From the IMG/VR virus record IMGVR_UViG_2563366805_000002: 30,982 nucleotides of DNA. One strand, written 5' to 3'. Shown here in pieces: positions 24,262 through 29,940 of the stretch (position 1 is the first letter of the stretch; each line of letters starts with the position of its first letter). The position numbers and the translations under genes are program-made. The notes under the pieces were generated by a model. That model was not told the origin of the DNA. It worked only from the letters and a program-made list of their open reading frames with translations, and searched no databases. The stretch is from a virus (taxonomy: Duplodnaviria > Heunggongvirae > Uroviricota > Caudoviricetes).

Positions 24262-24561
24262 TCTACATTCCTTAACTTGAGCCTTTCGGCATAAATGGTT
24301 TGCATAACAGAAACGACTTCGTACTTAATTGGAGAGACTCAAAGAAGGAATAAGTGAATAACACCTGAAATGAGAACTGCTTTAGTAAACTACTTCGTAT
24401 ATCGTCTGTTCTTCAAACCGACGCAATCATTAACGCATAGTTGAACATATGAAGCAATGTTTATTTTAGACATCCAGCCATCTTCAACCCCATCAAAAAA
24501 CTATAGCTTTCTTCAGGAACGTGTGTATAGTGCGCCAAGTTATCAGTATTAAGGAATTTTT

Positions 24562-24774
24562 TTGTCCCGTAAAATGACAGGAATTGTCAAAACCTTTGAC
24601 GGCAAAAGCGGCAAGGGTCTTATCACCCCATCCGATGGTCGTATCGATGTCCAGCTTCATGTTTCAGCGCTCAATCTCCGCGATGCAGAAGAAATTACCA
24701 CCGGATTACGCGTGGAATTTTGCCGGATAAATGGTCTGCGTGGCCCTTCAGCTGCCAATGTTTACCTTTCATGA
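24562..24774 (+). CDS. cspF: Cold shock protein CspF-like (divergent CspA-family member)
   Basis: 70-aa [44 protein letters not shown]...; divergent from cspB across a 300-bp intergenic region. Confidence 0.8.
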
Positions 24775-25066
24775 GCTATATTAAAGCTTTAATTTCAGGC
24801 CCCATCGGATCACACATGGAGAGTTTTTATGAATAACCCCGTCTGTCTTGATGACTGGTTGATTGGCTTTAAAAGCTTATGCTGTACTTTGGCCGTAATA
24901 GCTCTGCTAATAATATAATAAGCAGACTCATTGTGTTTAGGGACATTGTACTGGAAGAAAACATTTTAAACATCAGGCAAATAACCAAGTCACCAGCTAA
25001 ATAATAAGTTAACAGACATGAGTCCCGGGATGAGATTCAACATTACCATTGCCCCATTTAAAGCAC

Positions 25067-25090
25067 AAAACCCGCTCATCAGCGGGTTTT
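25067..25090. terminator. Terminator hairpin downstream of Q (candidate tR'-like terminator of the short late-promoter transcript)
   Basis: AAAACCCGCT-catc-AGCGGGTTTT perfect 10-bp stem, T-rich on both sides; about 105 nt downstream of the Q stop on the minus strand. Confidence 0.4.
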
Positions 25091-25195
25091 CTACTTTTTC
25101 TTAACGTCGGGTATACAAAGCCCATCGTTGAAAAAATTTTATCCATATTTTTTGAAAAATGCAAACATCATGTCGCCATCTTCAGCAAAAATCAT

Positions 25196-25948
25196 TTATC
25201 TCGTCACCTTCCTCAATTGCGCTTCCGCGTATGCTTCTTCCTGCCAGCACTTTGTTACCAGTTTACCAATGACGTCCGCATACCCCTTATACCACTGATA
25301 ATCGGTCAGGTCTGGTACCAGCTTCTGGACATGACGTCGTGCCAGCGTGGTCGGTAAACGACTAAACCGGTTTCCATTACAACGCCCACAAATCTTATAT
25401 ACCGGTACGCCATGAAACCGGGTTCTTTTTTCATCCAGAACAATCCCTTTACCCTTACACCCTCTGCACGCTGTGCTGGCTTCGCCCTTACCATGGCAAT
25501 GCTGACATAGTTCCTTCACCCATTCTTCCTTGATTACAGATTCCCCGCGTCTGTAGTGTTTCACCACTTCGCGCAATACATTATAAAATCCCGTACCTGA
25601 ACAATGCTCACAGCGAGCCTTACTTGCCGCAGACCTGGAGTAATCAGCAAAGGCAAAACTCACGAGGTAAGGAATAATCTGTAACCGGATTTCTTCACTC
25701 AATTTGTTCAATGTCGGGTTATCCAGTGCCATCGCGTAATTTAGCAGGCCTTCAATCGCAAACTGAGGGTCCTGAACACCAACTTTTGCCAGAAATAAGG
25801 CCAACCCAAGTGGTGCTTTCGACTGCACCATCCCCTGCGCTGCCATTACATCCGTAATTGTTAAACAACCGGTGCCTGTCGCTGGAGCGTCATCGCTCAA
25901 TTTTGGAGATTTTGGGGAGTAATATTTTGGTAAGGCTTCAAGGTTCAT
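25196..25948 (-). CDS. quuQ: Late-gene antitermination protein Q (QuuQ-like, zinc-finger Q family)
   Basis: 250 aa from MNLEALPKYYSPKSPKLSDD...; C-terminal CEHCSGTG...CQHCHGKG...CRGCKGKG...CGRCNG cysteine clusters; located upstream of the holin. Confidence 0.8.
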   Translation of the reverse strand: MNLEALPKYYSPKSPKLSDDAPATGTGCLTITDVMAAQGMVQSKAPLGLALFLAKVGVQDPQFAIEGLLNYAMALDNPTLNKLSEEIRLQIIPYLVSFAFADYSRSAASKARCEHCSGTGFYNVLREVVKHYRRGESVIKEEWVKELCQHCHGKGEASTACRGCKGKGIVLDEKRTRFHGVPVYKICGRCNGNRFSRLPTTLARRHVQKLVPDLTDYQWYKGYADVIGKLVTKCWQEEAYAEAQLRKVTR

Positions 25949-25961
25949 GCTCGTTCTCCAC

Positions 25962-27010
25962 TTACGCCAGTACGCCAATTGCCAGCGCGCGATCGATAAA
26001 ACGAAATATCAGCTCCAGTTGGGAGCCATACTTCTCTTCAAATGCCACTGTATCCGTATGCAGCTCGTTGTGATGCTTTCTGCACAAAGGCAACACAAAG
26101 AGATCATGTGCTTTTGTTCCCATTCCGCCCTGCCCGTGACCAATCAGATGATGCGGATCGTCGGCTGGCATACCGCAGCAAGCATACGGCTGTGTCTTAA
26201 CCCAGCGTGTGTATTTCTCCTTAACCCACCGGTGACGTTTAGGCAGCTTCATGAAAGATTCCGGAGACTCTGGATCAACGGTGATGCTTACCACCGTCTT
26301 TTCCTGTGATGGGTTTTGTTGCTGGTGGGCGTGAGGCAACGGTGCAAGATTTTTTGTGCGCTGTTTCAATATGCTGGTGGCGGTCTGCTCTCCCGGTACG
26401 ATGTCGCTTTCGCGGTACACCGAGCAGATTTTTTCCGCTGGTAATCCCAGCGAGCGACGTAATACCGCTTCCGGTAGCGCGTCCGCCAGCTGATTGCGGA
26501 CCGCCCACCAGGAAATTCAGCCAGAGATAATTCACGCTCCTGCGTACCGCTTATTGCGTGACCGATGACGTCAATCATCCATGCTGACAGGTTTTGATGA
26601 GCAAGTTGCTCGAGTGATTCGGATGTCTGGTCACGCAGCTGGTTGTCGCAGTGCCAGCACAACACCATTGCGCCGGTACCATATCGGTGAATAACGGTTT
26701 CGCTGTGATGATAATCGCCGTGTGGCCACTGGCAGGATTTAATATGGCGCAACAGCCAGTCAGACAATGCACCAGCACCACCAGCAGCACGAATTACCCG
26801 TGTGTTACTGAAAAACGGCAGCAATGTTTTGTCTTCCACCAGCGGCTGGCGAACGGCAGGAACGACCCCGGACGGCAGATTACGCATGCTTTTCGGTTCC
26901 GGCTCCACCAGTACCCGGGTATTGTGGAATACCGGCATGGATTCACGGCCCGGCTTAACGACCACCAGCCCGAGTTCCGGTACCAGAACAGGTCGAAGTA
27001 ATACCCGCAC
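25962..27010 (-). pseudogene. ydfU: YdfU-like (DUF968) gene split by a 1-nt frameshift
   Basis: Two overlapping minus-strand ORFs (26366..27010 and 25962..26420) in different frames; the combined span of 1049 nt is one short of 1050 (349 codons plus stop), matching the K-12 YdfU length as I recall it. A T6 run at 26429-26434 lies in the overlap zone. Confidence 0.5.
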
Positions 27011-27290: not shown

Positions 27291-27662
27291 CGGTTGTCTC
27301 TGCTGGCGCAGCAGGTGCCAGTTGTTCAGGCTGGCGTATAAAGTATAAATAAACTGGTTCCAGTGTAAAGCCCCTACATTAATGGAATAAAAGTCAAACA
27401 ACAGATTGTTGGGATAAACACAACGCTTATTATTAAAAGCGATTAGATAAATTAAATTTTAATGTTATGCAATTTTACCAGATCACCATAACATCTCGTT
27501 TGAAACCACCAAAACAACAACCATATCAATATTGATTATGTTAAAGTGAGTAAATATGGAAAACAACAAATCTGCACATTACGCTCCTTTTTTATCTGTG
27601 ATACTTTTTGTTTTATGCTGTGTGTGGGCATTATTTTTATAAAAATATTTACAGATAAAATA

Positions 27663-27904: not shown

Positions 27905-28519
27905 AGCCTGCTTCTCCTTGCCTTTCGGCACGTAAGAGGCTAACCTACATGTGTCTAGCATGAAATTGGCCTCAGATTAATGTTAAGCGTCTTGCAGGAC
28001 GCGTAATGTCAACTGGGGCTTTTCTCTATCTGCCTTTGGTGTTCATGCCTGAGGCAGATAGCCTCAAGCACCCGCAGCAATTCTACTTAACTCACGTCAC
28101 CTCGCCAATATAAAATCAATCAGAAAGGCGATCCGTAAGAACAACAGCAAGACAATAAATTGCCATTACAGCCGCAATAGCTAGCGCACATTTGAGAACC
28201 AGCACGACAACCTCCTGTATTGGACGTACACCAGTCCTGATAAATATGAGGCTGTCTCATCATTGATTCAATATAACTATTGGGTATAGTTTCTGTGATT
28301 TTGTTCTGTAGAAATGGAACACAACAACCAGTCTCCACCAGCACTTCTTTAAATACGCCAAGTCCGACGCAAGCTAACCTTCTAGTCCGCTTTGAGCGAA
28401 CTGTGGAAGCTCGCAAATGTTGTTACATCTGATGAAGGCATTACTCAAAGGAGGGGATAGTAGTCAACGTGGAGCAGGCCATGTTAGTATTTTTATACAA
28501 TTCGACTAAGGGAAAAACA

Positions 28520-28708
28520 ATGAGGCTTTACATAATAGGAAATGGATTTGACATGCGTCATGGCTTACCAACAGGATACAAGCACTTTAAGTCGTATGTA
28601 GAAAAAAATGACCAAGATCTATATGACGCGATAGAAGAATACATTCCTGCTGGGGACGAGTGGAATGAGTTAGAAAATGCTTTAGGTGAAATTGATTATG
28701 AGCTTTGA
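28520..28708 (+). pseudogene. AbiH-like abortive-infection gene, N-terminal 62 codons only (cut by IS3)
   Basis: MRLYIIGNGFDMRHGLPTGYKHFKSYVEKN... carries the N-terminal IIGNGFD...HGL motif I associate with the AbiH family (Pfam PF14253); the stop codon TGA at 28706-28708 is the first three bases of the IS3 terminal repeat. Confidence 0.5.
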
Positions 28709-29202: not shown

Positions 29203-29526
29203 ATGACAAAACATAACCGATTTCCCCCTGAAGTTCGTCAACGCGCTATTCGTATGGTTCTGGAAAACCAGAATACCTACAACTCACAATGGGCCGCTAT
29301 CTGCTCCATTGCCCCTAAGATCGGCTGCACTCCCGAGACATTGCGTATCTGGATCCGTCAGCAGGAGCCCGTTGATGATGAGCAGAATGCGCTGACTGCC
29401 AGCGAACGCCAGCGTCTGAAAGAACTGGAGCGGGAAGTCCGCGAGCTGCGCCGCAGCAATGATATTCTGCGTCAGGCTTCAGCGTATTTTGCCCAGGCGG
29501 AGCTCGACCGCCACTGGAAAAAATAA
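29203..29526 (+). CDS. IS3-family transposase OrfA (HTH)
   Basis: [54 protein letters not shown]... with a leucine-zipper-like C-terminus; related to IS629 OrfA. Confidence 0.8.
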
Positions 29527-29940
29527 TGCCGCTTCTGGAAAATCTGAGCGGTGAACACGGGGTCGGGCCAGTCTGTCATGAGCTGGATATTGCTCCGTCA
29601 ACGTACTACTGGCATCAGCAACGCCGGAAGTGTCCTGAACGACGCAGTAGTCGGGATAAACGCGATGCCGTGCTGATACCTGAGATACAGCGCGTATACG
29701 AAGAAAACTACAGCGTTTACGGTGTGCGTAAGGTCTGGCGACAGCTAAAACGTGAAGGTGTCGGCGTTGCCCGCTGCACCATTGAGCGCCTGATGAAAGC
29801 CCTGCAGCTACGTGGGGTGACACGCGGCAAAAGTGTCAGAACCACCCGCAGCAACAAAGCCGAAACACCGCAGGATCGGGTGAACCGGCAGTTCGTGGCT
29901 GAACGGCCCGATAGTCTTTGGGTGGCCGATTTTACCTACG
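29526..29940 (+). CDS. IS3-family transposase OrfB, 5' portion (interrupted after ...LWVADFTY by the intron)
   Basis: The frame reads ...RPDSLWVADFTY and then enters intron sequence at 29941; the ORF-track residues after this (GVPGVQGEHGC...) are intron-encoded read-through. Confidence 0.7.

Follow-up and report, generated by a model that had tools for sequence, protein, structure and literature searches.

Small inner-membrane proteins of Escherichia coli, such as AcrZ, MgtS, KdpF, and CydX, modulate larger membrane proteins and are encoded by chromosomal core genes that are conserved across genera. TisB, ShoB, DinQ, and Ibs are small hydrophobic peptides that belong to the type I toxins. The closest described system to the locus analyzed here is ynfS of E. 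coli K-12, which is located in the cryptic prophage Qin between cspF (b1558) and ydfT (b1559; ydfT/quuQ). In a study based on chromosomal SPA tagging and immunoblotting, VanOrsdel et al. (2018; PMC6001520) reported ynfS with exactly the peptide and coordinates considered here; the SPA-tagged YnfS was detected by immunoblot in K-12, and the protein was among 13 that were also positive in a tetracycline ribosome-profiling screen. A preprint by Weaver et al. (10.1101/511675), in which AcrZ and MgtS are also cited, describes strong YnfS start-codon peaks with retapamulin and with Onc112 and states that tagged YnfS is less abundant than some other proteins. The gene was still listed as uncharacterized in the 2024 y-ome paper, and our full-text literature searches with the gene name and the peptide string retrieved no functional study of it.

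We analyzed a stretch of 30,982 nucleotides from a virus of the class Caudoviricetes (IMG/VR record IMGVR_UViG_2563366805_000002), referred to below as the window. In our assessment, it very probably carries the 29-codon gene ynfS of a Qin-type lambdoid prophage, read from a presumed cspF-ynfS transcript and encoding a protein that we model as a membrane helix. A preliminary description had called this small gene de novo from the raw sequence; the call was correct, yet the gene is not novel. The present analysis contributes (i) the association of ynfS with cspF, (ii) counts of frame and Shine-Dalgarno (SD) retention, and (iii) the contrast in polymorphism between ynfS and cspF.

Identity and translation of ynfS

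The ORF and its ribosome binding site are located as follows.

24829..24918, plus strand: ynfS coding sequence, 29 codons plus TAA (ORF list, identity to K-12, PF23697)
24818..24823, plus strand: SD sequence GGAGAG, 5 nt 5' of the ynfS ATG (read directly from the sequence)

The start codon ATG occupies positions 24829 to 24831 and the TAA stop positions 24916 to 24918, as read from the window sequence. The preliminary description had recognized a real ORF but numbered it one base too low (24828 to 24917); the GGAGAG motif that it placed at a spacing of 5 nt is indeed separated from the ATG by TTTTT.

A segment of 661 nt, which begins just 5' of cspF and ends at the Q stop codon, is 100% identical to E. 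coli K-12 MG1655 (NC_000913.3), where the same ORF is annotated as ynfS (b4750, YP_009518791.1, 1642122..1642211). The peptide matched the Pfam family PF23697 "YnfS" with 80.9 bits (E = 4.7e-23; gathering cutoff, 27), and this match covers residues 1 to 29 of 29 and profile positions 1 to 29 of 29. Its string is identical to the table entry for YnfS in VanOrsdel et al., and an exact-sequence lookup returned a 52-member cluster, present on more than 1000 contigs, with the UniRef name YNFS_ECOLI. According to the annotations of K-12, FDAARGOS_1370, C 236-04A, and phage PhiR42_1, the ORF is found in a Qin-type prophage with cspF on the same strand and the Q antiterminator gene ydfT/quuQ on the opposite strand. 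The ORF is ynfS, a known gene: K-12 has carried it in its annotation since the tagging study of 2018, and a Pfam family is dedicated to it. The preliminary description had read it as a small hydrophobic ORF with a good SD, located between cspF and Q. The placement agrees with the K-12 annotation, and the translation of the gene is borne out by the published K-12 immunoblot and start-codon peaks; the Ribo-RET and conservation checks that it had proposed have largely been done by others, with a positive outcome for YnfS translation.

We also considered whether the ORF could be an unexpressed product of chance in AT-rich intergenic DNA. The six frames of the window hold 278 ORFs of 20 to 45 codons, so a short ORF alone means little. 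However, ATG is the start codon in 105 of them, only 6 of these 105 are preceded by an SD core of at least 4 nt at a spacing of 4 to 10 nt, and among all 278 an ATG, a spaced SD, and a 19-residue Kyte-Doolittle mean of 1.6 or more occur together in ynfS alone (its product reaches a mean of 2.46 over residues 11 to 29). The ORF exceeds chance expectation within the window. The published immunoblot and start-codon profiling also speak against a chance ORF, as do the RefSeq annotation and the Pfam family, and we regard this explanation as extremely improbable.

Folding of the region around the SD and start codon revealed no RNA structure beyond that of shuffled sequences (z = -0.03), and the idea of a structured translational switch at the ynfS start was dropped because the start site folds no differently from the shuffles. 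No Rfam family was detected over ynfS at gathering thresholds or at E values of up to 1, and a tblastn search with YnfS found no second copy of the gene in the window.

Transcript, prophage context, and distribution

The features surrounding ynfS are as follows.

24562..24774, plus strand: cspF, annotated in K-12 and NZ_CP109924.1, 54 nt 5' of ynfS and co-oriented
25067..25090, plus strand: intrinsic-terminator hairpin AAAACCCGCTCATCAGCGGGTTTT followed by CTACTTTTTC (terminator scan; MFE and centroid folds)
25196..25948, minus strand: ydfT (Q antiterminator), convergent with ynfS

The terminator scan found no terminator-like site between cspF and ynfS, and the hairpin at 25067 to 25090, located between ynfS and the convergent ydfT, is the first terminator 3' of ynfS. 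Because of this arrangement, a bicistronic transcript is the simplest reading, and cspF is probably its first gene. We examined six annotated records with ynfS, including two phage genomes, and cspF adjoins ynfS in each of them; all 116 full-length copies that we compiled span the entire cspF-to-Q segment. We therefore propose, on the strength of gene arrangement, that the lysogen would produce a cspF-ynfS transcript with ynfS as its distal gene and the hairpin at 25067 to 25090 as its end. With the late antiterminator gene Q on one side and the lysis cassette on the other, ynfS would occupy a "moron" slot and be read in the direction opposite to that of late transcription.

The gene order in the window is cspB (minus), cspF (plus), ynfS (plus), ydfT (minus), ydfU (minus, frameshifted), and hokD (minus). 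Strain C 236-04A of E. coli O125ac:H10 (NZ_CP109924.1) shares 99.9% identity with the window over 13 kb, and PGAP annotates the ynfS ORF in this strain as hypothetical protein WP_120795389.1. The preliminary description had spoken of a Q-ydfU-rem block; this label does not hold, since the window contains no rem (no significant tblastn match) and, at 27308 to 27661, unrelated DNA stands in place of the rem segment of K-12.

Several further observations concern this prophage. (i) Directly 3' of Q, on the Q strand, there is a promoter-like sequence, TTTGCA-18-TAAAAT (25165 to 25136, minus strand), which is followed by the hairpin at 25090 to 25067; in Rfam, the prophage sRNA IsrK also matched the region from 25065 to 25165 (minus strand) with a subthreshold score of 16.6 bits (E = 0.47). 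This element is plausibly the late promoter with its short terminated leader transcript, and if Q reads through it, late transcription would cross ynfS and cspF in the antisense direction. (ii) Compared with intact copies, the ydfU gene (DUF968; 25962 to 27010, minus strand) carries a 1-nt indel that divides it into two ORFs, 26366..27010 and 25962..26420; the annotation of the 99.9% identical NZ_CP109924.1 lists it as "frameshifted." (iii) In the region of 28469 to 28708 and 29481 to 29597 (both on the plus strand), an AbiH-family abortive-infection gene beside hokD/sok is apparently truncated by IS3-family remnants (ALIL pseudoknot match). (iv) In the near-identical genome, the annotation places a group II intron reverse transcriptase gene where the window has its 3' end.

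The order cspB / cspF-ynfS / Q is found in K-12 and in 1406 to 1410 of 5426 complete E. coli genomes, as well as in the Escherichia phages PhiR42_1, PhiR63_1, and 2H10; in the latter two, the tblastn match lies in the same slot and the ORF is unannotated. Phage HannyBb carries an identical ynfS ORF. Since the same arrangement recurs in many E. coli genomes and in Escherichia phages, ynfS is, as judged from these genomic comparisons, cargo of Qin-like lambdoid phages, located between Q and the holin gene. A degenerate-codon scan with a 10-residue stretch over 185,579 species-representative genomes returned just three records, two from E. coli and one from Shigella flexneri, and no homologue outside these two genera; the scan covered one genome per species, and its pattern would miss more divergent homologues. 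A ynfS homologue 3' of cspH, a chromosomal paralogue of cspF, was considered and rejected, as the matches at the cspH locus cover only positions 11 to 231 of the query, which lie inside cspF.

In about 216 complete E. coli genomes, the match is confined to the far end of the spacer. The structure was read in one of these (NZ_CP033250.1, aligned to window positions 24765 to 25023): a deletion has removed ynfS entirely, together with the 3' end of cspF, which is annotated there as a pseudogene. These sequences show that the cspF-ynfS unit has apparently decayed in some cryptic prophages.

Selection on ynfS and the role of its product

To describe polymorphism, we compiled 116 full-length cspF-to-Q copies (40 haplotypes) from IMG/VR pattern scans and from phage and E. 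coli loci. The 29-codon frame is kept in all 116, with no indel and no stop codon, as opposed to 18 gap columns in the downstream spacer of the same copies. One copy has lost its start codon (ATG to ATA). The SD sequence GGAGAG is invariant, and the only polymorphic sites of the spacer between cspF and ynfS are 24791, 24793, 24796, 24798, 24800, 24808, 24813, and 24828.

The substitutions within ynfS follow a different pattern from those in its neighbor. There are 11 polymorphic sites, of which 10 are nonsynonymous and 1 is synonymous, resulting in a pN/pS of 2.7, a value that is inflated by the shallow divergence among the copies; the corresponding counts for cspF on the same haplotypes are 14 and 20 (pN/pS = 0.24; Fisher p = 0.005). 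The IMG/VR copies were ascertained by patterns that fix part of the peptide, and 7 of the 10 nonsynonymous changes, and none of the synonymous ones, fall outside the codons constrained in this way. An omega of 0.3 or less is rejected for ynfS at p < 0.01, whereas with 11 sites a value of about 0.5 is indistinguishable from 1 (P = 0.058 at omega 0.5). Residues 11 to 29 are hydrophobic in all 16 YnfS variants (19-residue Kyte-Doolittle mean of at least 2.17). Between the two main haplotypes, the K-12 type and the phage-2H10 type, ynfS differs at 2 of 90 positions and the downstream spacer at about 7%, with additional indels, whereas cspF is identical (0 of 213 differences). This comparison, made over 24562 to 25195, suggests a mosaic or recombination boundary near the cspF-ynfS junction.

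Purifying selection on the YnfS peptide is undetectable beyond the frame, the SD, and the overall hydrophobicity, and the polymorphism is equally compatible with an ORF that drifts neutrally and with one that is constrained in its composition. In the model that we prefer, YnfS would consist of a short polar N terminus of 10 residues and a 19-residue hydrophobic stretch that reaches the C terminus, and it is most likely inserted in the inner membrane as a single helix of the tail-anchored type. A lipoprotein reading was rejected, since neither YnfS nor the peptide encoded at 27556 to 27642 (described below) contains a match to the bacterial lipobox [LVI][ASTVI][GAS]C. Any function would be exerted at the membrane, where YnfS would touch either a membrane protein or the bilayer, in the manner of other small membrane proteins. 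Because no purifying selection on its amino acids is detectable, such a function likely either depends on composition rather than on specific residues or is young and dispensable; selection, if there is any, would act on the frame, the SD, and the hydrophobic composition.

The main rival to this model, which we consider possible though clearly less probable, is that ynfS is translated but selectively neutral, namely, that a young ORF in the 3' part of the cspF transcript gained a strong SD and yields a functionless, quickly degraded peptide. The contrast in pN/pS with cspF speaks for this explanation, and the range limited to Escherichia and Shigella, the copy with an ATA codon, and the existence of a deletion variant without ynfS are in line with it. 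The same holds for the published observation that start peaks are strong and the level of the tagged protein is lower. In addition, YnfS has no family, structure, or defense-system match besides its own Pfam entry; searches of NCBIfam, PHROGs, PADLOC, and PDB sequences returned nothing significant for it or for the peptide of the second ORF. However, a neutral ORF does not readily account for an invariant SD, for a frame free of indels, frameshifts, and stops in 116 copies next to a spacer with several indels, for substitutions that all leave the C-terminal half strongly hydrophobic, or for the small difference between the main haplotypes compared to that of the downstream spacer, and the number of polymorphic sites is also compatible with a moderate constraint.

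Alternatively, the nonsynonymous excess could reflect diversifying selection on a membrane peptide expressed by the lysogen in phage-phage or phage-host conflict, a reading to which we assign a small probability; candidate roles under it could be, for example, the exclusion of superinfecting phages or the modulation of a membrane receptor or holin.

A further alternative is that YnfS is a membrane-damaging peptide similar to the type I toxins and restrained by an antisense RNA. In its size and hydrophobicity, YnfS is similar to TisB, ShoB, DinQ, and Ibs, it is prophage borne, and a weak sigma-70-like match on the minus strand (24939 to 24910), just 3' of the ynfS stop, could drive an antisense transcript. 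However, this promoter match amounts to 9 of 12 positions, and 5 such matches were found at an expectation of 3.2 ± 1.8 in shuffled sequences. Furthermore, no Rfam antitoxin or sRNA was detected at 24500 to 25250, even at E values of up to 1, and there is no minus-strand terminator upstream of ynfS. Tagged YnfS was detected in rich-medium cultures and its start codon is heavily occupied by ribosomes, so its translation is not repressed as in typical type I toxins. A toxic role of YnfS appears quite unlikely.

The single membrane helix remains our preferred reading of YnfS. That a prophage small ORF is translated in experiments and shows no detectable purifying selection calls for caution in equating translation with function for such ORFs.

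A second small ORF and comparison with known systems

The preliminary description had also pointed to a second small hydrophobic ORF with an LCC motif, which exists as described.

27556..27642, plus strand: 28-codon ORF encoding MENNKSAHYAPFLSVILFVLCCVWALFL, an unannotated small gene candidate (ORF list)

It had suggested that this peptide and YnfS may be distant paralogues from a family of small membrane peptides marked by a central LCC. Both are 28 to 29 amino acids long, start with M-x-N, combine a polar N-terminal part with a hydrophobic stretch at the end, contain a Cys pair in this allele with the LCC motif, and occupy accessory positions of lambdoid prophages. However, there is no significant similarity between them. 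The best local alignment comprises 7 residues (LCCTLAV / LCCVWAL; Smith-Waterman score, 25), a score that was reached by 9.4% of 20,000 shuffles and equaled or exceeded against YnfS by 7 other arbitrary short ORFs of the window. The ORF at 27556 was absent among the tblastn matches of YnfS in the window with E values of up to 100, and its peptide does not match PF23697. The LCC motif is invariant among the YnfS variants, which are themselves very similar, and it is unconserved in 14 variants of the 27556 peptide, in which only one Cys is invariant and the corresponding segment reads VLCC, VFCC, VSCC, ACCF, AGCF, TCCF, or VCCF. The two ORFs also have unrelated flanks and differ in pN/pS (2.7 for ynfS and 0.25 overall for the 27556 ORF). 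LCC is present in 6 of 279 short ORFs of the window, 11% of which share at least one tripeptide with YnfS; the shared LCC is no more than chance. Paralogy is thus very improbable, and the motif-based link between the two ORFs can be dropped. The alternative offered in the preliminary description, a coincidence in AT-rich intergenic DNA, holds for the shared motif but not for the ORFs themselves, one being the known ynfS and the other being constrained.

The 27556 ORF, in the region from 27546 to 27645 (plus strand), deserves attention as a gene of its own. It is unannotated in both near-identical genomes examined and in the other fetched records that carry it, its locus is absent from K-12, its peptide and two variants are absent from a collection of 15 billion proteins, and the peptide was not found in the literature searched. 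All 128 copies, which were recovered by a pattern on codons 1 to 13, have exactly 28 codons followed by a stop. In the unconstrained codons 14 to 28 there are 11 synonymous and 12 nonsynonymous changes (pN/pS = 0.31). The ORF is 94% identical on average, compared to 58 to 65% for its flanks, and it persists with three different downstream neighbors; it has a conserved SD and a separate conserved upstream block at 27426 to 27472. Since it is intact in all copies, has a low pN/pS, is more conserved than its flanks, and occurs in three neighbor contexts, it is likely a genuine, unannotated, selectively constrained small protein gene and, rather than ynfS, the better target for follow-up.

In this window, hokD lies 145 nt downstream of the 27556 ORF. 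Pattern matching further revealed two features on the minus strand: a promoter-like sequence, TTTCCA-16-CATAAT (27562 to 27535), which overlaps the ORF at its start, and a terminator-like hairpin (27441 to 27424) inside the conserved block. An RNA running between these two sites would be about 100 nt long and antisense to the 5' region of the ORF. The layout possibly resembles that of type I toxin-antitoxin loci, an idea suggested by these pattern matches.

A comparison of YnfS with known systems leads to the following conclusions. (i) With the type I toxins HokD, TisB, ShoB, DinQ, and Ibs, it shares the character of a small hydrophobic peptide of a kind often found in prophages. It differs from them in that Rfam detects no cognate antisense RNA, translation is unsilenced in normal growth, and neither Hok/Gef nor any other toxin family is matched. 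(ii) With AcrZ, MgtS, KdpF, and CydX, it has in common a single hydrophobic helix, a length below 50 amino acids, its own SD, and the tagging approach by which it was detected. However, there is no sequence relationship to these proteins, and ynfS is phage borne, confined to Escherichia and Shigella, and without detected purifying selection. (iii) The 27556 peptide resembles YnfS in length, in layout, and in the Cys pair of this allele, whereas its gene, which K-12 lacks, has different flanks and its own conserved upstream block. (iv) The prophage of the window differs elsewhere from Qin of K-12 in its frameshifted ydfU and the lack of rem, whereas the ynfS locus itself is without difference: it has the same 29 amino acids as K-12 YnfS (b4750, YNFS_ECOLI, PF23697), the same 661 nt, the same neighbors cspB, cspF, and ydfT/quuQ, and the same SD and terminator.
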